Shown: in pieces, positions 12,042-26,860 of the stretch
How positions within the stretch are numbered: position 1 is the stretch's first letter
Layout of the letters: each line of letters starts with the position of its first letter
From: Candidatus Moraniibacteriota bacterium
Lineage (GTDB): Bacteria > Patescibacteriota > Minisyncoccia > Moranbacterales > GWC2-37-73
DNA: 64,000 bases
Assembly: GCA_003507445.1 (NCBI GenBank)
Contig: DNVR01000019.1
Coordinates: 76,395 to 140,394 of the forward strand
Direction: 5' to 3'
Notes under the pieces: generated by a model
Told to the model about the DNA's origin: nothing
The model's database searches: none
Seen by the model: the letters and a program-made list of their open reading frames with translations, nothing else
Made by a program: the position numbers and the translations under genes

Positions 12042-14936
12042 ATGCAGGAAGACAAGATAATTATAAAGGGTGCGCGCGAGCACAATTTAAAAAATATTGA
12101 TCTGGAATTGCCTCGGAACAAGTTCATTGTTTTTACGGGTCTTTCGGGCAGTGGAAAATCAACTTTGGCATTTGATACTATTTTTGCTGAAGGGCAAAGA
12201 CGATATCTGGAAAGTTTGTCGAGTTATGCGCGTCAATTTTTGGGACAGATGGATAAGCCAGATGTTGATTATATCCAAGGTCTTTCGCCTGCAATTTCTA
12301 TTGATCAAAAATCAACCTCACACAATCCTCGTTCAACAGTGGGAACGGTAACTGAAATCAATGATTACCTGAGGCTTCTTTTTGCTAAAATTGGCGTTCC
12401 TCATTGCAGTGTTTGTGGGCGTGAAATTTCAAAACTTTCCACCGATGAAATTGTGGATAGAATTTTGGATATGGGCGGAAAAAAGAAATCACAAACAATT
12501 GAAATTTCTTCGCCAATTGTGCGCGAGCGAAAAGGCGAATATTTGGCAATGTTGGATGATATGTGGAAGCGTGGTTATTCAGAGGCGATTGTGGATGGAA
12601 AACTGGAAAGATTGGAAAATTTTAAAGATATAAAATTAGGAAGATATAACAAGCATAGTATCGATATTATTGTTGATACGGTTGTTATTAATGAAGAAAA
12701 TCTTAGTAGGATTTTTGAAGGAGTTGAAAAAGCGCTCAGGCTTTCGCACGGAATTGTAAAAGTGAAATGCGTAAAAGAGTTGAAAGTTGAAAGTAGCAAG
12801 TCGAAAGAAATTGGATGTGTTGAACAGATTTTTAATCAGAATTTGTCTTGTCCGATTCACGATATTGAATTTCCAGAAATGGAGCCGCGCCTTTTTTCTT
12901 TTAATTCTCCTTATGGTGCCTGCGAGGGTTGCGAAGGTCTGGGTATGAAAAAAGAAATTGATCCTGCGCGAGTGATGCCAGATATGAATAAAACTATTGG
13001 CGAAGGAGGGATTATGCCTTGGAGTTTTAAACCTAATAATTATCAAGGAACGGTGCTAAAAGCAGTAGCTCAATATTATAGTATTCCTGACAATAAACGC
13101 TTGCGGGATTTGCCAAAAGATAAGATTGATATTTTGATGTATGGAACTGAGGACGAAGATTTGATAAAAGTTAAATATCATTTTAAAAGTGGCAGCGGTC
13201 ATTATAATGTGCGTTGGAAAGGTGTGGTGGCGTGGCTGCAGGAAAGATATCGCACGACAACCTCAGATGCAGTGCGCACAGACATTGAAAAATATATGTC
13301 GCAAAAACCTTGTTCGACTTGCGGAGGAAGCAGATATAAAAGTGACGTGCTTCTCGTTAGTGTTGGGGGTAAAAATATTTATGAAATTTCGGCGCTTAGT
13401 ATTTGGCAGTGTATCGAATTTTTTAAAAATTTAAAATTAACTGCCCGAGAGGAATTGATTGCTGGCAGAATTTTAAAAGAAATTGTTGCGCGCTTGGTTT
13501 TTCTTAATAACGTTGGTCTGGATTATTTGACTCTTGGGCGAGCAGCGTATTCTCTTTCTGGTGGAGAATCACAGCGCATACGTTTGGCTTCTCAGATTGG
13601 TTCACAACTGGTTGGAGTTTTGTATATTTTAGATGAGCCATCTATTGGTCTTCATGCTCGCGATAATGCAAAACTCATTGAAACATTAAGGCAGTTGCAA
13701 CAAATCGGCAACACATTAATTGTGATTGAACACGATGAAGAAATGATGCGCTCTGCTGACTGGCTGGTTGATATTGGTCCGGGAGCAGGAAAGCACGGCG
13801 GCGAAATTGTGGCGCAAGGATTGCCCGAAGATGTTATTAATAATCCAAAGTCACTTACTGGAAAATACCTTCGAAATGAGCTTGAAATTGAAATTCCAAA
13901 ATTCAGAAGACAAATGAAAAGAAAGAAGAGTATCACAGTGCGAGGAGCTTCTGAGCATAATTTGAAAAATGTGACAGTGGAATTTCCACTTAAAGTTTTC
14001 ACTTGCGTGACTGGAGTTTCTGGATCTGGAAAATCAACATTGGTAGAAGAAACTTTATACAAGGCGTTGGCTAATAAATTGCATCGCGCGCTTGATGTGC
14101 CTGCAAAGCATAATGAAATTATTGGCATTGAAAATATCAACAAGGTTATTATGATTGATCAATCTCCAATTGGGAGAACGCCGCGCTCAAACCCTGCCAC
14201 TTATACTGGTCTTTTTACGCATATTCGCGAGCTGTTTGCGCAAACAAAAGACGCCAAGCTTAGGGGATATGGTCCTGGCAGATTCTCATTTAACGTGGCT
14301 GGCGGGCGCTGCGACAATTGCTCTGGCGAGGGATATCTTAAAATCGAAATGCAGTTTATGCCCGATGTGTATTTGCCGTGCGATGTTTGTAATAGTAAAA
14401 GATATAACAGTGAAACTTTGCAAGTTAAATATAAGGGTAAAAATATTTCAGAGGTGCTGGCGATGACAGTTTCTGAAGGCGTTGAATTTTTTGGCGCACT
14501 TTCAAAAATATACGAACCACTTAAAGTTTTGGAGGAAGTTGGTTTGGGGTATATTGAACTTGGTCAAAGCGCCACCACACTTTCTGGTGGAGAAGCGCAG
14601 CGTATAAAACTTGCCAGCGAACTTTCGCGTCGCGCGACTGGAAATACTTTATATATTTTGGATGAGCCAACCACAGGTCTTCATTTTGATGACATCAAAA
14701 AACTTTTAACAGTGCTCAATCGTCTTGTGGATGCGGGAAACACCGTTGTTGTTATTGAACACAATATGGACGTGATTAAAACTGCAGATTGGATCATCGA
14801 TATGGGACCGGAGGGTGGCGACGGCGGCGGAAAAGTTGTTGTCACTGGTCCACCAGAAGAAGTTATCAAATATCACAAAGAAAGTTATACCGCTAAATAT
14901 TTGCGACAAGTCCTGAAGCCGAAAAGCATACAATAA
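12042..14936 (+). CDS. uvrA: Excinuclease ABC subunit A (copy 1)
   Basis: Two ABC cassettes ([21 protein letters not shown]) and zinc fingers. Confidence 0.99.
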   Translation: MQEDKIIIKGAREHNLKNIDLELPRNKFIVFTGLSGSGKSTLAFDTIFAEGQRRYLESLSSYARQFLGQMDKPDVDYIQGLSPAISIDQKSTSHNPRSTVGTVTEINDYLRLLFAKIGVPHCSVCGREISKLSTDEIVDRILDMGGKKKSQTIEISSPIVRERKGEYLAMLDDMWKRGYSEAIVDGKLERLENFKDIKLGRYNKHSIDIIVDTVVINEENLSRIFEGVEKALRLSHGIVKVKCVKELKVESSKSKEIGCVEQIFNQNLSCPIHDIEFPEMEPRLFSFNSPYGACEGCEGLGMKKEIDPARVMPDMNKTIGEGGIMPWSFKPNNYQGTVLKAVAQYYSIPDNKRLRDLPKDKIDILMYGTEDEDLIKVKYHFKSGSGHYNVRWKGVVAWLQERYRTTTSDAVRTDIEKYMSQKPCSTCGGSRYKSDVLLVSVGGKNIYEISALSIWQCIEFFKNLKLTAREELIAGRILKEIVARLVFLNNVGLDYLTLGRAAYSLSGGESQRIRLASQIGSQLVGVLYILDEPSIGLHARDNAKLIETLRQLQQIGNTLIVIEHDEEMMRSADWLVDIGPGAGKHGGEIVAQGLPEDVINNPKSLTGKYLRNELEIEIPKFRRQMKRKKSITVRGASEHNLKNVTVEFPLKVFTCVTGVSGSGKSTLVEETLYKALANKLHRALDVPAKHNEIIGIENINKVIMIDQSPIGRTPRSNPATYTGLFTHIRELFAQTKDAKLRGYGPGRFSFNVAGGRCDNCSGEGYLKIEMQFMPDVYLPCDVCNSKRYNSETLQVKYKGKNISEVLAMTVSEGVEFFGALSKIYEPLKVLEEVGLGYIELGQSATTLSGGEAQRIKLASELSRRATGNTLYILDEPTTGLHFDDIKKLLTVLNRLVDAGNTVVVIEHNMDVIKTADWIIDMGPEGGDGGGKVVVTGPPEEVIKYHKESYTAKYLRQVLKPKSIQ

Positions 14937-15724: not shown

Positions 15725-17212
15725 ATGAAAAAGTCAAGATTACAGCGGAAAGTAGCTGAGCTGCCTCAAAATCCGGGGGTGTATTTTTTTCGTGATCAAG
15801 AGGGTAAGATTTTATATATTGGCAAGGCGACAAACCTTCGTTCCAGAGTTCAGTCGTATTTTCGCAATGTCATCCCGAACTCGTTTCAGGATCTAGATGA
15901 GCCTAGCGAGATGCTGAAACAAGTTCAGCATGACACAAAGGGATTCTTGAGCGTTCCTGGGCGGAGTGAATGGATTGGGTTGATGGTGGCTCAAGTTGTG
16001 GATATTGATTTTGAGCAGACGGATTCAGTTTTGGAAGCGCTGATTTTGGAAAGCAATTTAATTAAAAAATATCAGCCAAAATATAATACTCTGGAGAAAG
16101 ATGATAAATCATTTTCGTATTTTGTTGTCACTAAAGAAGAATTTCCAAAAGTTTTGATTGTGAGAAAAACAGATTTAGTTTGTCATCCCGCACTTGATGC
16201 GGGTTCCAGTCACACGCACAAATCTGGCTCAGCTCTGGATTCCCGCCTACGCGGGAATGACAAGGCCTCAAAGCCTTGTAAAAAAATACAAAATACCAAA
16301 TACCAGATACCATATACCAAGACCTTCGGTCCTTATACGAGCAAGCAACAAATGCAGACCGCGCTGAAAATTATCCGTCGCATTTTCCCGTTTCATGCTG
16401 GGAAACAAAAAACTGAAAAAGGCTGTTTGGATTTTCAAATCGGTCTTTGTCCTGGGCCGTACGCTGATGCAATTTCAAAAACTGATTATAAAAAAAATAT
16501 TCGAGGGATTGAAATGATTTTGCAGGGGAAGAAAAAAAGCTTGATTTCAAAAATGGAAAAAGAAATGCAAGTTTTTTCCAAAAAAAATGAATTTGAAAAA
16601 GCGGCAGTTCTCCGAAATAAAATTTTTGCATTGCAGCACATTCGCGATGTGGCACTGATGACAAGGGAGATGGAACATGGAGCATGGAACATGGAGCATG
16701 AAATACAAGATACAAAATACCAAATACCAAATACCAGAATCGAGGCTTATGATATCTCCAACATCTCTGGACAATATGCTGTTGGTTCAATGGTGGTTTT
16801 TGAAAATGGTATGCCGAATAAATCGCAGTATCGCAAGTTTAAAATAAAAACTGTTGATGGCAGTAATGATGTGGCGATGATGAAAGAAGTTTTGTCGCGA
16901 AGATTTAATAATGATTGGTCAATGCCAGATTTGATTTTGCTGGATGGCGGACAGGGACACGTTAATATGGCAGGGGATTTGGTGCGCGAATTAGGACTAG
17001 ATTTGTTGATTGTCGGTGTGGCTAAAGGTAAGACGCGTAAAAATCTCAATTTCCAATTTCCAATTTCCAATAAAATCCCAATGTCTCAATTTCCAAAAGA
17101 AATGCAAGAGTTTTTAAATGATAAGAATCTGGTTAAATCTATTATGGATGAGGCTCACCGCTTTGCAATTGCTTATCATCGAAAATTACGCAGTAAAAAC
17201 GCCTTAAAATAA
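15725..17212 (+). CDS. uvrC: Excinuclease ABC subunit C-like protein (GIY-YIG, UVR, RNaseH-like; no HhH tail) with five repeat-derived insertions
   Basis: PGVYFF..LYIGKATNLRSRVQSYF, IEAYDISN, LLDGGQG, DEAHRFAI. Confidence 0.95.
   Translation: MKKSRLQRKVAELPQNPGVYFFRDQEGKILYIGKATNLRSRVQSYFRNVIPNSFQDLDEPSEMLKQVQHDTKGFLSVPGRSEWIGLMVAQVVDIDFEQTDSVLEALILESNLIKKYQPKYNTLEKDDKSFSYFVVTKEEFPKVLIVRKTDLVCHPALDAGSSHTHKSGSALDSRLRGNDKASKPCKKIQNTKYQIPYTKTFGPYTSKQQMQTALKIIRRIFPFHAGKQKTEKGCLDFQIGLCPGPYADAISKTDYKKNIRGIEMILQGKKKSLISKMEKEMQVFSKKNEFEKAAVLRNKIFALQHIRDVALMTREMEHGAWNMEHEIQDTKYQIPNTRIEAYDISNISGQYAVGSMVVFENGMPNKSQYRKFKIKTVDGSNDVAMMKEVLSRRFNNDWSMPDLILLDGGQGHVNMAGDLVRELGLDLLIVGVAKGKTRKNLNFQFPISNKIPMSQFPKEMQEFLNDKNLVKSIMDEAHRFAIAYHRKLRSKNALK
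15868..15935. mobile_element. TGTCAT..ATGACA element in frame within uvrC
   Basis: Encodes VIPNSFQDLDEPSEMLKQVQHD; gctgaaacaagttcagcatgaca arm shared with the elp3 copies. Confidence 0.85.
16181..16262. mobile_element. TGTCAT..ATGACA element in frame within uvrC
   Basis: tgtcatcccgcacttgatgcggg..ggattcccgcctacgcgggaatgaca; encodes CHPALDAGSS..LDSRLRGND. Confidence 0.85.
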
Positions 17213-17311: not shown

Positions 17312-17683
17312 ATGATGAAAAAAATAACACGAAAAACTTTATCAAGCTTTCTTTTGATAGTTGCAATTCTTTTGATTGCAGGTGGTTTTTCTGATGGTAT
17401 GATTGCTTCAGCTGATATGAATTCAATGGAGGATTCATCAATAGTTTTACACCAGAGTGTGCCAGTCAATGATAATGCATTAAAGCCTTGCTGTGAGGAT
17501 AAACAAGGTGGTGCGTCGGCAATTCAGTTTTCAGTTTTTACTCAAAACATAAAATTTTTACCACTTGGCTTTGCTGAAAATATTTCTGGCAGCAATTCAA
17601 TTTTTGAACATAAAATTATAGAATTATCTTCTGCTTCGCCACCGAAGCCGGATATCATTTCTTCCGTTTTCCTGAAGGAATAA
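17312..17683 (+). CDS. Small exported protein with CC motif and C-terminal Pro-Pro (DUF2946/CutF-like candidate)
   Basis: Signal/TM segment, LKPCCED, SASPPKPD near the C-terminus; directly upstream of copper genes. Confidence 0.6.
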   Translation: MMKKITRKTLSSFLLIVAILLIAGGFSDGMIASADMNSMEDSSIVLHQSVPVNDNALKPCCEDKQGGASAIQFSVFTQNIKFLPLGFAENISGSNSIFEHKIIELSSASPPKPDIISSVFLKE

Positions 17684-17748
17684 ATCTTTTCTCTTGTTTG
17701 CCCTTTTTAAATAAGGGTGGTTTTTGGTATACTTAAAAAATAAAAATT

Positions 17749-17880
17749 AGGACTTACGCATTTTCTCAACTATTTCTTATTTGGCACGCTTTTGGATGAA
17801 TACTCAATATCCAAAAGCTCAAAGAGTTGCTGTCGCCAACTATTGGCCAAAAAAGAAATGTTTCGAAATGTGTAACTTCT
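17749..17880. repeat. 132-bp structured repeat, copy 1
   Basis: aggacttacgca..tgtgtaacttct; near-identical to 19419-19550. Confidence 0.9.
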
Positions 17881-17892
17881 TACTTATATAAT

Positions 17893-19413
17893 ATGCAAAA
17901 AATAACAGTTCCAATCATTGGAATGCATTGCAAATCTTGTGAAATTCTTGTTGAAAATAAGCTTTCTGAAATCAGCAAGATCAAAAAAATAGACGTCAAT
18001 TGTAAGAAAGGAACAGCTGATATTTATTACGAATCTCAAAAACCCAATATGGTGGAAATAGAAAAAGCCATCAGGGAAGCGGGTTATGCGGTTGGAGTGG
18101 CAGAAAAAAAACCGTTGTTCAGTCGGAATATAAATGAATATAAAGATTTGGGGATCGCCTTTTTGTTTCTGTTTGGTATTTATTTGATTGCAAAAAATTT
18201 AGGGCTAGCTGACATTGGAGTAAGTTCCGCATCAAATCCATCGAGCTTGGGCGTGGTTTTCTTGGTGGGGATTACGGCTGGGATTTCAACTTGTATGGCG
18301 TTGGTGGGAGGTTTAATTTTGGGAATTTCTGCTCGTCATTCTGAGAAACATCCTGAGGCTACTGCCGCGCAAAAGTTTCGTCCGCATTTATTTTTCAATG
18401 CCGGCAGGATTGTGATTTACGCCTTGTTGGGTGGACTGCTTGGTTTGATCGGTTCTTCATTTCAATTGTCGGGAGTGACTTTGGGAATTCTGACAATTGC
18501 AGTAGGAGTTGTGATGTTGTCACTTGGACTAAAATTGATTGGAATTTTTCCTCGTTTGGAAAATGGTGGAATAGCTTTGCCGAAAAGCATCAGCAGTGCG
18601 TTGGGCATTCACCCTGTTAAATCCTGCGAAGCAGGTGCTCGCAGTAGCGAGCAATTTAACAGGGTAAAAAATAATACCAAAGAATATAGTCATAAAAATT
18701 CATTCGTTATGGGTGGACTGACATTTTTCTTGCCCTGTGGCTTCACGCAAGCGATGCAACTTTATGCTGTGAGCAGTGGAAGTTTCACTCAGGGTGCAAT
18801 GATTATGGGTATTTTTGCACTTGGAACAGCTCCTGGACTCTTGGGTATTGGCGGTCTGGCTAGTGTGGTGCGCGGAATTTTTGCTCAAAGATTTTTTAAG
18901 TTCGCTGGAATCCTCGTGATATTTTTGGCGATGTTTAATATTGCCAATGGATATAATCTGACTGGCTGGCAAGTGTCGAAAGTTGAAAGTCGAAAGTTGA
19001 AAGTTGAAAGTGTGATTGATCCTAATGTGACAATGGAAAACGGCGTGCAGGTTGTTAGAATGAAGGAAATTGCCAGTGGATATTCTCCGAACAAATTCAC
19101 AATCAAAAAAGACGTGCCAGTGAAATGGATTATTGATGCTCAGGCTCCGTATTCTTGTGCCAGCAGTCTTGTGGTTTCAAGTTTGAAAATTCAAAAAACT
19201 TTAAAGGCAGGCGAAAACATTATTGAATTTACACCAACAAAAACAGGTAAAATCCCATTTTCTTGTTCTATGGGTATGTATACTGGCGCATTCACAGTTA
19301 TTGATGAAAATAGTGATGAGGTGGTGGTTGAAGACGACCTGGTTGAAAAGCAGGCTTCTGGTGGAATATGCAATAAGCAAGGATGTAATATAAATAAAGA
19401 TCGAATTAAATAA
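17893..19413 (+). CDS. HMA domain + DsbD_2/TauE-like membrane domain + cupredoxin fusion
   Basis: GMHCKSC, STCMALVGG, FFLPCGFTQ, FSCSMGMY. Confidence 0.9.
   Translation: MQKITVPIIGMHCKSCEILVENKLSEISKIKKIDVNCKKGTADIYYESQKPNMVEIEKAIREAGYAVGVAEKKPLFSRNINEYKDLGIAFLFLFGIYLIAKNLGLADIGVSSASNPSSLGVVFLVGITAGISTCMALVGGLILGISARHSEKHPEATAAQKFRPHLFFNAGRIVIYALLGGLLGLIGSSFQLSGVTLGILTIAVGVVMLSLGLKLIGIFPRLENGGIALPKSISSALGIHPVKSCEAGARSSEQFNRVKNNTKEYSHKNSFVMGGLTFFLPCGFTQAMQLYAVSSGSFTQGAMIMGIFALGTAPGLLGIGGLASVVRGIFAQRFFKFAGILVIFLAMFNIANGYNLTGWQVSKVESRKLKVESVIDPNVTMENGVQVVRMKEIASGYSPNKFTIKKDVPVKWIIDAQAPYSCASSLVVSSLKIQKTLKAGENIIEFTPTKTGKIPFSCSMGMYTGAFTVIDENSDEVVVEDDLVEKQASGGICNKQGCNINKDRIK
18611..18665. mobile_element. 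CCCTGTTAAAT..ATTTAACAGGG hairpin element in frame in the copper gene
   Basis: 12-bp terminal inverted repeat with two internal hairpins; encodes HPVKSCEAGARSSEQFNRV. Confidence 0.8.
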
Positions 19414-19418
19414 TTTAT

Positions 19419-19550
19419 AGGACTTACGCATTTTCTCAACAATTTCTTATTTGGCACGCTTTTGGATAAATATTCAATATCCAAAAGCTCAAAGAGTCGC
19501 TGTCGCCGACTATTGGCCAAAAAAGAAATGTTTCGAAACGCGTAATTTGT
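19419..19550. repeat. 132-bp structured repeat, copy 2
   Basis: aggacttacgca..cgcgtaatttgt. Confidence 0.9.
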
Positions 19551-19564
19551 GAATTAAAAAATAT

Positions 19565-22351
19565 ATGAAAAGAATAAACCTGTCTCTTTCTGGAATGCAC
19601 TGTGCTTCCTGTGCAATGTTGATTGAAAAAGTGCTTGCAAAAACTCCTGGTGTACAAAAAGCCAGTGTGAATTTTTCTGCAGAAAAAGTTTTGATTGATT
19701 TTGATGAAAATATAACCGATCCGCAAAAACTTATTGCTGCAATAGTTAAAGGTGGATATGGTGCTGAAGAAATTGATGCTAAAGATAGTGAATTTGAAAA
19801 GAAAAAAAGGGATCATGAGATCTCAGAATATTTTTCAAAATTTATGTTTAGCGCTTTGCTTAGTGTGCCGATGTTGTATTTTATGCTTTTGGATTTTTTT
19901 AAATGGCTTCCAGGGGAAAAAACTTTTGCGCCATACATTGGTGTGTTTTCATTGCTTTTGACAATTCCTGTGCAGTTTGTGATTGGTTCAGGCTTTTACA
20001 AGGGAATGTGGTCATCGCTAAGGATGAAGACGTTTAATATGGACAGCTTGATTGCAATTGGAACTTCGACTGCTTTTTTCTTCAGTTTGTATAACTATGT
20101 GACATATGTCATTGCTAATAATTCCTTGATCGGAGTTGGTGGTATGAAAATTCCTGATCTGTATTTTGAAACAGCAGCTTATTTGATCACATTTGTGATT
20201 CTTGGAAAATGGTTGGAAATTAGAACAAAGGGAAAGACATCTGATGCGATCAAAAAATTGATGGGGCTGCAAGCGAAAACAGCCCGCGTGATTCGTGGTG
20301 GCGAGACGCTTGATATTGCAATTGATGACGTGATTCATGGTGATATCATTATTGTTCGCCCTGGAGAAAAAGTTCCTGTTGATGGAAAAATTACCAAGGG
20401 AACATCTGCCGTGGATGAATCTATGATTACAGGAGAAAGCTTGCCAGTAGAAAAAAATATCGGAAGTATGGTTGTTGGTGGAACTATTAATAAGACAGGA
20501 AGCTTTGAGTTTGAAGCTACAAAAATTGGTTCAGAAACAACATTAGCTCAAATCATTCGCTTGATTGAAGAAGCGCAAGGATCAAAAGCACCGATTCAAA
20601 ATTTTGCCGACAGTATTTCTGCTTGGTTTGTTCCAGCTGTGATTGGAGTTGCAATTTTGACTTTCATTGTCTGGTATTTTTTCTTGGGAGCAACTTTAGC
20701 TTTTGCTTTGTTGGCATTTACTTCGGTAATTGTGATTGCATGCCCATGTGCACTTGGTTTGGCAACCCCGACATCATTAATGGTTGGAACAGGTAAGGGC
20801 GCTGAATATGGCGTGCTTGTAAAAGGTGGAGAAGCGCTTGAAGCTGCAAGCAATATTTCAGCTGTAGTCTTTGACAAGACTGGAACGCTTACCAAAGGAA
20901 AGCCTGAGGTGGTAAAAATAATTTCAAATCCTGCTTTTGATTTTGATGAGGATAAGATTTTAAAAATATCATCAAGCATTGCAAAACATTCCAATCATCC
21001 CTTGTCTCAAGCTGTTGTAAGATATGGCGAAAAACAAAATATTCAACTAGCTGATTTTGGAGATTTTCAAGAAGTCCCTGGAAAAGGAATAATTGCAAAA
21101 TGCTTAACACATAATAAGGAAATAGTTTTGGGTAATATTAGAATTCTAGAGCAAGTAGGAGTCCAAACTTCTTGGGCAAAAAATCTTCTGGAAAATGAAT
21201 CTGTAAGCGCTGGGACATTACTTTTTGTGGTGCATAATGGCGATGTTGTGGGGGCAATTTCAATTGCTGATGAAGTAAAAGAAGAATCAAAAAAAGTGGT
21301 GGCAAAACTTCAAAAAATGGGTATTGAGGTTTGGATGATTACTGGAGACAATGCGCGCACAGCAAAAGCTATTGGCTTGCAGGTTGGAATCACAAATATT
21401 TTGGCAGAAGTTTTACCAGAAGATAAAGCTAACGAAGTTAAGAAACTTCAAGCTCAAAAAATAAAAAAACATTTCCATTTGTTTGGAAATTGGAAATTAG
21501 AAATTGGAAATTCCACCCGCAGGGTGGCTATGGTTGGAGATGGAATTAATGACGCTCCTGCACTAGCTCAAGCTAATGTAGGAATCGCAATGGGATCAGG
21601 AACTGATGTGGCAATGGAGGCAGGCGACATTGTTATAATGAAAAGTGATCTGAATGATGTGGTAACTTCATTTGAACTTTCAAAAGAAACGATGGGTAAA
21701 ATAAGACAAAATATGTTTTTTGCTTTATTTTACAATGTGATTGGAATTCCAATTGCTGCTCGTGTTTTCTTTGGAATCGGCTTGGTGTTAAAACCAGAAC
21801 TAGCAGGACTTGCTATGGCGATGAGTTCTATTTCAGTAGTTGGAAATTCATTGCTTCTTAAATTATTCAAGCCTGGCAAGAGAAACTATATTTCTTTGGT
21901 TGCGCCAATTATTATGATGGTAGTTTTCACGTTCGGATTTTATGAATTTGCAAAATTCAGCAGTGGAATGGAGAATACAGTTATTAATGAGGAGCAAATA
22001 AGGGTTGAATTTAATAAATTGAATTTGAATGCCCAAATAGAAATCATAAGTGAAGAGGCTGGAGTAAAGGCATTTTATTTTACTGATGAAAATAATGTTC
22101 CAAAAGAATTGCGGGAAGAAATAAACAGCAAAAGTTTCACGCCTGAAATAATCAATGGAAAAAAATATCAGAAAGTTTATATTGGTTGGGTAGAGGCGCA
22201 GATGATGATTGAAAAAGAACTTATCCAAAAATCAGGGGACAGAGCGGATGATTTTTTTGGAAACAGTGTCATCATTGAAATCTTGCCCAAAACCAAAACC
22301 ATTCTCGACAATTTCCATTTTGTCGGAGCTGATTTTCAGATCAAGAAATAG
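19565..22351 (+). CDS. copA: Copper-translocating P1B-type ATPase with C-terminal extension
   Basis: [34 protein letters not shown] and MAMSS motifs. Confidence 0.95.
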
Positions 22352-24067: not shown

Positions 24068-26860
24068 ATGGCTTCCAAAAAAGAAACTTCGAAACAAACA
24101 AATGAGATTGTAATCAAGGGTGCGCGAGTTAATAATCTCAAAAACATCGACGTTAACATCCCGAGGGATAAGTTCGTGGTGATTACGGGACTTTCTGGCT
24201 CGGGTAAATCATCGCTGGCTTTTGACACGATTTATGCCGAAGGTAATCGTCGATATATGGAAGGCCTTTCTTCGTATGCGCGAAATTTTTTGGATCCATC
24301 AGATAAGCCTGACGTGGATAAAATTGAAAATCTTTCCCCTCCAATTTCTATTGATCAAAAAAGCATTTCTCGTTCTCCGCGATCAACTGTTGGAACACTG
24401 ACTGAGGTTTATGATTATTTGCGTATTATGTATGCAAAAATCGGAGTGCTGCATTGCCCGGAGTGTGGGACATCAATGCAAAAAAGAAGCAATCAGGAAA
24501 TTTTGGATGAAATTTTAACATTTTCTCATCACACTCAGATTGCTATTTTGGCAAAGCCGAAGGATATTGCTGTTGGAAAAGAATTATTAAAACACATTGC
24601 GCAAATGGGCTATGCTCGTGTGCGTTTTAATGGAAAAATGTTTACGGTAGCGGAAGCTATGATGCTCAGCGAAAGTGAAATTGAAACTGATATTGAAATG
24701 GTTATTGATAGAATTGTGCTCGACAAGAAAAAACCTGATGTGGAAAGAATGTTAGACTCTATTGAAACAGCGATGAAAAACGGTGGCAATTCAATGAAGA
24801 TCTTGTTTGATAATGTTGAAGAACGTAATTATAACCAAGATTTCTTTTGCAGCGAATGCGGTGTGAAAATCAAAGAAGTGACGCCGCGTCATTTTTCTTT
24901 TAATAGTCCAGAGGGTGCTTGCGACCTGTGCTCCGGTTTAGGTTACACCTTAAAAGTAAATGAAGAACTTATTATTCCCAATAAAAATCTTTCTTTAATG
25001 GAAGGTGCAATTCAGCCCTGGAGCAAATCTGGTGGAAAAATAAGTGGACAGAGTGTGCAACTTTTGACGCTTAAAGATGTTGCAAAAAAATATAAGTTTT
25101 CAATGAACGTTCCGGTTAAAAAATTAACAGCTGATCAACTCAAAATTGTTTTACATGGTAATGATGGATTTGAAGGTGTAATTCCGGCATTAGAAAAAAA
25201 ATATCAAGAAACAAAATCTGATTATGTGCGCAGTGAAATTGAAAAATATATGACCGCACACACTTGTCCATCTTGCGATGGCAAGCGTCTTAAAAAAGAA
25301 TTTTTGGCGGTGGAAGTTCAAGGAAAAACAATAGATGTGATGGTCTCAATGAGTATAACTCATCTGAGAGAATTTTTTGAGAATGTTGAAAATTGGACAC
25401 AAACAACACAAGAGAAAAGCATAGGCAAACCTATTGTGCGAGAAATTTTGCAGCGTCTTAGTGCACTTGAAAACGTGGGATTGGAATATTTAAATTTGGG
25501 ACGATCAGCTCAAACAATTTCTGGTGGGGAAGCTCAACGTATCAGACTGGCTGCGCAACTCAATTCTCAATTGATGGGAATTGTATATGTTTTGGATGAA
25601 CCTTCCATCGGACTTCATTCTCGCGACACAGAAAAACTTATTAATACTATTAAAGCCTTGCAAAACGTTGGAAATTCATTGATTGTGGTTGAACACGATG
25701 AAAGCATCATTAAAGCTGCTGACTGGATTGTTGATATGGGTCCAGGGGCAGGAGAAGAAGGCGGAATCGTCGTTTTTGAAGGTGATTATAATCAACTTAT
25801 TAAATCTAAAAATCTTACTGCACAATATATATCTAAAAAGAAAAAGGTTTCAGAAAAGAAAAAAAATAGAGCTGGAAACGGTAAATTTATTGAAATTATC
25901 GGAGCTGAAGAAAATAATTTAAAAAATGTTGATATAAAAATACCATTGGAAAAATTTGTGGTTATTTGTGGAGTTTCAGGCAGTGGAAAATCAACTTTGG
26001 TAAAAAATATTTTAGCCAAAGCATTGTCGCGACATTTTTATAACACACGAGATCTTCCTGGTAAACACAAAAAAATCAAAGGATTTGAGCATATTAAAAA
26101 GGTTATTAGTATAAATCAAAATCCAATCGGACGCACTCCACGCTCAAATGCAGCAACGTATACTGGAGTGTTCTCACACATTCGCGACCTGTTTGCTGGA
26201 GTGGAGGAAGCAAAGAACAGAAATTATACTGCTAGTCGCTTTAGTTTTAATATGAAAGGTGGGCGCTGTGAAGTGTGCCAAGGGGAAGGCTCAAAGAAAA
26301 TAGAAATGCATCTGCTTCCTGATATGTATGTGAAATGCGAAGCTTGCGGAGGAACGAGGTTTAGCAAAAAAACCTTAGAGATTGAATATAAAGGCTTTAA
26401 TGTTGCACAGATTTTGGATATGGATGTGCGCTTGGCTCTGCGTTTTTTTGCAAGGCATCCGCTTATTGCTGAAAAACTTAAAACCATGGAAGATGTTGGT
26501 CTTGGATATTTGAAGCTCGGACAAAGTGCAACAAATCTTTCTGGTGGAGAAGCTCAGCGTATTAAACTTGCCACGGAGCTTGCACGAAAATCAACAGGCA
26601 GCACTTTGTATATTTTGGATGAGCCAACTGCAGGACTTCATTTTGATGATATCAGAAAATTGTTAAGCGTTCTTAATGCCTTGGTTGATAAAGGTAATAC
26701 AGTGATTGTGGTTGAACATAATCTTGATGTTGTTCGTGATGCTGATTGGGTGATTGAACTTGGACCGGATGGTGGCGACCTTGGTGGTTATCTCACTTTT
26801 GCTGGCACACCAGATCAACTTAAAAAAGACAAGAAAAGTTGGACCGCGAAATATTTGTAG
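24068..26860 (+). CDS. uvrA: Excinuclease ABC subunit A (copy 2, divergent paralog)
   Basis: Both Walker A motifs, SGGEAQR signatures and CxxC zinc fingers intact. Confidence 0.97.

Follow-up and report, generated by a model that had tools for sequence, protein, structure and literature searches.

A 134-bp non-coding repeat with IS701-type ends and a structured core, present twice in the copper locus of a Candidatus Moraniibacteriota bacterium

Two structured copies at a copper locus

Here, we describe two copies of a short structured repeat that precede two consecutive copper genes in the genome of a Candidatus Moraniibacteriota bacterium (G000; 1.06 Mb in 19 contigs), within a 64,000-nucleotide stretch of contig DNVR01000019.1 (assembly GCA_003507445.1) that is referred to below as the window and that is also contained in groundwater sequencing runs. 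Alignment (10 differences in 134 bp) and folding confirmed the original prediction of near-identical structured copies in these positions; its bounds of 132 bp, ending 12 and 14 bp before the ATGs, were corrected by a target-duplication scan to 134 bp and to distances of 11 nt (copy 1) and 13 nt (copy 2), with both copies in sense orientation to the copper genes (Table 1). In the predicted structure of each copy, a long closing stem encloses two hairpins (-44.3 and -44.9 kcal/mol; z of -6.5 and -5.8, with 0 of 200 shuffles equally stable), and the reverse strands fold about equally stably (z of -5.0 and -6.1). The 5-mers flanking copy 1 (AAAAT/ACTTA) no longer match and a duplication is not recognisable there, while those flanking copy 2 (ATTTA/AATTA) keep a near-perfect duplication with one mismatch. 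A search of Rfam, proposed with the original prediction, yielded no family at the element: no covariance model matched either window copy at E<=10, and none reached its gathering score in nine loci of relatives.

Table 1. Coordinates in the window of the repeat copies, their parts and the adjoining features
Feature	Position	Strand	Remarks
MITE copy 1, 134 bp	17748..17881	+	IS701-type left end, stem, structured core, variant right end
Left terminal repeat of copy 1, TAGGACTTACGCATTTT	17748..17764	+	15/17 identical to the IS701-element end TAGGACTTACGCGTTTG
Shared core of copy 1	17764..17864	.	Closing stem, hairpin 1, hairpin 2 with CT(G/C)TCG loop
MITE copy 2, 134 bp	19418..19551	+	Between the HMA-cupredoxin gene and copA
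Shared core of copy 2	19434..19534	.	Equivalent to G000:C11:95830-95930
Host gene, HMA - DsbD_2 membrane domain - cupredoxin fusion	17893..19413	+	Resident, not cargo
Host gene, copA-type P1B ATPase (HMA, E1-E2 ATPase, hydrolase)	19565..22351	+	CPC motif
Terminator-like hairpin	17698-17720	+	Upstream of copy 1; consensus match only
Promoter-like site, TG before TATACT	17706-17733	+	Upstream of copy 1; consensus match only

The promoter-like site upstream of copy 1, from a scan that returned 12 such sites against 6.6 expected, would put copy 1 inside a 5' leader, and in the predicted leader the bases between the element and the ATG begin unpaired. The terminator-like and promoter-like bases are identical in relatives G007 and G002, where the leader runs from the promoter-like bases to the ATG in about 20 nt without the element. 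The best sigma-70-like match (17863-17892), a hybrid promoter with the right end of the MITE as its -35 box, was rejected because its -10 box abuts the ATG and cannot serve this start.

The HMA-cupredoxin gene is present in 9 of 10 relatives searched, and the MITE is absent from the orthologous copper locus in 9/9 relatives (18 loci examined; in G004 the 5' end of the gene lies beyond the contig). Empty sites were found for copy 1 in G007 and G002 and an empty junction for copy 2 in G002, G003 and G006. Contigs in two sequencing runs of one study (X1 and X4) join 17740-17882 or 17745-17887, skipping copy 1, and look like co-occurring relatives. The original prediction had also raised deletion or amplification of the enclosed gene by recombination between the copies; a deletion joint is absent from four contig sets, with contig data being blind to joints inside the repeat.

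The locus holds further repeats and genes of interest. A 57-bp insert with three hairpins (18608-18664) lies in frame within the HMA-cupredoxin gene, is skipped by contigs of relatives, and aligns, with complementary changes in its stems, to a 56-bp module nested in some MITE copies; judged from sequence, it appears to represent another family of structured repeats, one able to persist within coding DNA. The uvrC-like gene, the HMA gene and copA contain in-frame palindromes and tandem 7-mer repeats (15725-17212, 18971-19017 and 21463-21512), and the 7-mer arrays recur throughout the window. A 122-residue protein with a Cys-Cys motif (17315-17683) has no Pfam match and only unnamed small proteins as Atlas neighbours; it precedes the HMA gene in 7 of 9 relatives, with two copies in G008, and is possibly a copper-related partner. 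Two full-length uvrA-like genes (12042-14936 and 24068-26860) stand 12 kb apart near uvrB- and uvrC-like genes, all named from their translations.

A dispersed element with IS701-type ends

Searches of 41 genomes returned 24 matches to the element in G000 and matches in all eight other genomes of the genus; elsewhere in the family 1 of 16 genomes had a match, and outside the family 0 of 16. Forty regions around matches were taken from G002, G004, G005 and G007, and two-ended copies were found in four genomes (19 in G000, 15 in G007, 6 in G004 and 4 in G002; 44 in all). The copies are short, non-coding and intergenic, carry terminal inverted repeats, and sit in AT-rich gaps. Both orientations occur: relative to the nearest start codon, 10 copies in G000 are sense and 9 antisense. 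Pfam searches of 17 neighbouring genes, including three beside partial copies and leaving out three beside two-ended copies, matched seven (two HlyD/CusB-type adaptors, RNase PH/PNPase, a sugar transferase, NUDIX, an acyl-CoA ligase and an ABC ATPase) and left ten without a match; none is an HMA, P-ATPase or cupredoxin gene. Short copies of 62 and 80 bp in G000 contain assembly Ns and were not counted as real forms, and a 34-bp form with both ends and without the core (two in G000, one in G004) is perhaps a shell without filling, or else the product of repeated deletion at TTT microhomology.

When boundary shifts and repeat lengths were varied, the signal was strongest for a 134-bp element flanked by a 5-bp direct repeat. 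After merging five sites shared between genomes, the 44 copies represent 39 unique sites, at which the 5-bp duplication is perfect in 13 and within one mismatch in 26 (1.2 and 4.5 expected from 2000 shuffles). There is no excess at 3, 4 or 7 bp among these sites (4 bp: 2/39 against 1.3 expected), and at 6 bp there are no perfect duplications and five near-matches (1.5 expected). When 25 copies from relatives were mapped to G000, five corresponded to clean empty sites with a single 5-mer and three to filled sites; five could not be paired, and the others fell at sites with different indels or repeats. The alternative reading offered in the original prediction, a MITE, is thus upheld by the 5-bp target duplication, the empty sites and the IS701-type ends, and nothing was found in favour of its suggested domestication. 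The right end, which had been described as decayed, is instead a fixed variant common to the 44 copies in four genomes, to which both window copies add private changes.

Copies lie close to start codons: 16 of 19 in G000 are within 35 nt of one, with start codons taken from a custom gene caller that miscalled 2 of the 19 neighbours (correction moves one copy out and one in). Under the null, this distance is reached by 18% of all intergenic positions and by 42% of AT-rich positions in gaps up to 300 bp, the latter giving P = 2e-4. In relatives, 11 of 20 copies are as close (P = 0.17 against the strictest null), and jointly 27 of 39 (P = 5e-4). A Shine-Dalgarno (SD)-like motif precedes 59 of 709 long genes of G000. 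MITEs have been described as favouring AT-rich intergenic DNA and forming stable stem-loops (PMC10969869).

At G000:C12:34346 (L282), the terminal base of the MITE serves as the A of the start codon of a NUDIX gene encoded on the other strand; this MITE inserted within that codon and rebuilt it. Another pre-ATG gap (G000:C5:16506-16539 and its orthologues L287 and L289) holds a 34-bp mini-form in G000, a different long hairpin repeat in G007 and a remnant of the G007 kind of repeat in G002, and is a pre-ATG hot spot for several repeat families.

The ends of the MITE match those of full-length IS701-type elements. Matches to the DDE_5 transposase domain occur in 2 of 301 genomes of the class, and two of these loci are complete elements of 1040 and 1060 bp that end in TAG(G/A)ACTTACGCGTTTG. 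Full-length elements of 1040-1081 bp (L085, L087, L113-L115 and L181) end in TAGGACTTACGCGTTT, and the transposases of L085 and L087 exceed the cut-off of NF049921 (transpos_IS701_2), a model of the IS701 family. The genome collection holds 17 related loci with the same ends, one set of them in a Moraniibacteriota MAG, and a further full-length copy was found in G440, in the same order. The left end of the MITE agrees with the ends of full-length elements at 15 of 17 positions and its typical right end at 13 of 17. Among five distinct full-length elements, one (L087) has a 5-bp duplication, a perfect one, on its own contig; for others, a matching 5-mer is found on another contig in two multi-copy genomes.

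The end motif is present in 44 of 151 genomes of the order, where 17 short two-ended elements (48-192 bp) were collected from other genera, seven with a perfect 5-bp duplication. A covariance model of the MITE core (below) matches none of these 17, which indicates that the IS701 shell is general and that its filling varies. IS701 elements are described as typically duplicating exactly 4 bp of target (PMC2266710), and the 5 bp duplicated by the MITE and L087 therefore place both in a 5-bp group of the NCBIfam family rather than with canonical IS701. No DDE_5 or Y1 transposase match was found in G000, and no IS701_2 transposase scored above cut-off in the 33 genomes of the family. With no cognate transposase found in either, we infer mobilisation from the ends and the duplications.

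The core and its second shell

Inside the ends lies a core of 85-100 bp, which was aligned from 62 distinct copies. Of the 24 base pairs in its three helices, 14 vary on both sides, and 87.6% of cells are paired, more than in any shuffle or slid control. A more divergent set of 47 matches, which overlaps the training set in part and is fitted to the covariance model, gives 21 covarying pairs of 24. Because the copies are related, the controls overstate the covariation. The motifs GCAC and GCTC and the CT(G/C)TCG loop are conserved. With the covariance model, the core was found in 10 of the 16 remaining family genomes (with as many as about 30 matches per genome), in 1 of 104 genomes of other families in the order and in 0 of 150 others in a phylum sample; viral contigs gave no exact match of a core pattern.

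Covariation in homologues, as anticipated, supports a conserved structure for the core. The compensatory change that had been singled out, T-A to C-G at 17828/17838, holds between the two window copies and breaks down across the family: among the 33 of 44 copies that could be parsed, the pair is T-A in 18, C-A in 11, C-G in 4 and T-G in none, and is paired in 33/33 on the minus strand against 22/33 on the plus strand, which would be the mRNA. The minus strand has the more stable fold in 57 of 62 cores. Wobble-type pairs counted over all helices are even between strands (51 cells plus and 45 minus, of 12 and 11 types; 56 and 33 cells, of 15 and 14 types, in the plus-fitted 47-match set), and the fold is therefore assigned to neither strand.

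The same core is also found in a second shell, between the ends GGGTCATACGCAA(A/T)TTATGG, which occur in 14 of 33 genomes of the family. Short two-ended elements of this kind (n=21) have an 8-bp duplication that is perfect in 7 and within one mismatch in 11 (0.34 and 0.87 expected), and the core model matches inside most of these 21 loci. Their GG-starting ends match an ISL3-type element, and their parent is a 1419-bp element (L220:1529-2947) with the same ends and an interrupted ISAon1/ISL3 transposase. IS1595 was rejected as the parent, with the end in none of 27 IS1595 loci bar one match with four mismatches, whereas the ISL3/ISAon1 element has it. At L220:1339-2947 (G022), the ISAon1-type element directly adjoins its own MITE, with an 8-bp duplication in common. 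A third kind of outer repeat, of the TTATATGCAACGTACGG type, surrounds the core at L094, L096, L056 and L072.

Cores also differ in place. At one site common to G007 and G004, flanks and shell are the same and the core subtypes differ, with a 66-bp insert in G004; at another common site, G000 and G004 differ by the same 66-bp insert. Inserts of 20, 28, 56 and 66 bp occur at fixed points, with the 20-bp module at four places and the 28-bp module at six in G000. In the literature searched (main texts, mostly non-subscription), no earlier description was found of this MITE family or of a core common to two IS families.

Origin of the copies and comparison with known systems

A copper-sensing, riboswitch-like cis-regulatory RNA controlling translation of the HMA-cupredoxin gene and copA, the first reading in the original prediction, would suit the sense orientation of both copies at 11 and 13 nt from the ATGs, their stable fold, and the position of copy 1 downstream of a promoter-like consensus match. 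We give this reading next to no credence: copies are many and lie in unrelated contexts and both orientations (in G000, the 17 other two-ended copies stand at other genes, and 9 of 19 are antisense), the element is missing at the orthologous locus in all nine relatives, a third of the parsed copies (11/33) have a C-A mismatch at the cited positions of the mRNA strand, and the element has no Rfam family. It is also improbable that the copies form a REP/REPIN-like repeat spread by a HUH (Y1/RAYT) nuclease acting on single-stranded hairpins, with the terminal repeats incidental. The nested imperfect hairpins and small palindromic inserts agree with such an origin, as does the presence of Y1 transposases in 17 of the family's 33 genomes, but the terminal repeats at both ends and the duplications of 5 bp and 8 bp, which match two DDE families, speak against it, as do the lack of a Y1 match in G000 and of the core in 30 Y1 loci at E<=0.01 (one match at E=0.028). 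HUH-type spread, unlikely for the whole element, might still account for the inner core by itself or for the small inserts by themselves.

It is instead very probable that both copies arose by insertion of a non-coding MITE of 134 bp, with IS701-type ends and a 5-bp duplication, and that they are not a copper-specific regulator; the MITE was likely mobilised in trans by a transposase of the IS701 family. A MITE of the IS701-type 5-bp group landed twice in the copper operon of one lineage. The transposase would have arrived and then been lost, with none found in G000 or the 33 genomes of the family, and AT-rich DNA before start codons would be both a preferred target and a tolerated one, since an SD-like motif that an insertion could disrupt is present at few genes and the closed fold would keep the final 11-13 nt upstream of the ATG out of the stem. 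The insertions may thus be neutral. Cores would be exchanged by gene conversion between conserved anchor sequences, and the pairing would largely be preserved by template switches within fold-back DNA and by sequence transfer from copy to copy. The insertions would affect the two copper genes, if at all, by altering mRNA stability or translation as a fixed and recent side effect, without sensing metal.

The core itself might be a functional module under its own selection: a three-way fold with loop bases read by a host or selfish protein, captured and spread by different IS ends, that tunes mRNA stability or initiation at many genes or aids its own spread. We regard this as possible but rather unlikely. 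Stems covary across divergent subtypes (14/24 and 21/24 pairs) while GCAC, GCTC and the CT(G/C)TCG loop persist, the core is kept in two unrelated shells and recurs in 10 of the 16 remaining family genomes, and it clusters before starts in a genome where SD-like motifs are few (59 of 709 long genes). Against it stand the wobble pairs, which show no strand preference (51 against 45 cells, and 56 against 33 in the plus-fitted set), insertion sites that are mostly unshared between genomes (five shared among 44 copies), unrelated fillings of IS701 shells elsewhere in the order, controls inflated by the kinship of copies, and a distribution that in practice covers one family (1/104 genomes of other families in the order and 0/150 in the phylum sample). 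Template switching is reported to make compensatory changes in one step without selection (10.1101/2021.04.15.439925), and covariation in the core therefore does not demonstrate that a functional RNA is made. Strong covariation (21/24 pairs) together with conserved loop and junction bases is more than template switching by itself accounts for. As a bolder proposal, possible but again rather unlikely, the core could be a parasite of parasites: a transposase-free module, its loop and junction bases read by a putative protein, that moves between unrelated IS ends (IS701 and ISL3), is swapped in place, hosts hairpin modules and seeds structured leaders before dozens of genes in a bacterium largely without SD signals.

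These results remove a tempting false riboswitch candidate: with covarying stems and two copies before related genes, the MITE mimics one, and motif searches in such small genomes will often meet the same trap. On the positive side, they reveal a shell-and-core build in which one structured core is found with two unrelated transposase families and is exchanged in place. Were the conserved loop of the core read by a protein, it would point to a new factor for mobilisation or regulation in reduced genomes. The same leaders exist with and without the element, which offers a ready test of how structured leaders affect SD-less initiation.

Among known systems, the closest in its ends is IS701, full-length elements of which with the ends of the MITE occur in the same class and order; the MITE differs from these in its dissimilar inner core and asymmetric right end, and from IS701 as described in making, like L087, a 5-bp instead of a 4-bp duplication (PMC2266710). 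ISPlag1 of Planktothrix, described as IS701-like, has the end CAGGACTTACGCA (PMC2464740), and with its 197-bp remnants it resembles the present elements and the NF049921 type in having the terminal repeat (C/T)AGGACTTACGC and short non-coding derivatives (PMC2464740). The second shell is paralleled by a 187-nt MITE of Microcystis aeruginosa mobilised by ISL3, with GG-starting ends, 8-nt duplications and a stem-loop fold; as described, that MITE has one shell, whereas here the same core is found in ISL3-type and IS701-type shells (PMC11448079).

In general form, the MITE resembles bcr1 of the Bacillus cereus group, which is described as about 130-155 bp long with 5-bp direct repeats, non-conserved positions and a two-armed fold kept by compensatory changes (PMC3184786). 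The part of that source available to us names no cognate transposase for bcr1, whereas two are identified here by their ends, and it reports bcr1 as transcribed, while the MITE is known from DNA and is likened to bcr1 by description (PMC3184786). The Correia, RUP and ERIC MITEs share its AT-rich intergenic targets, stable stem-loop transcripts being reported for theirs, and many Correia copies lie 5' of genes, as here; their end sequences differ (ERIC is flanked by TA) and, as far as these sources describe them, they are without the modular core that is common to two IS families in the present MITE (PMC10969869, PMC3184786).
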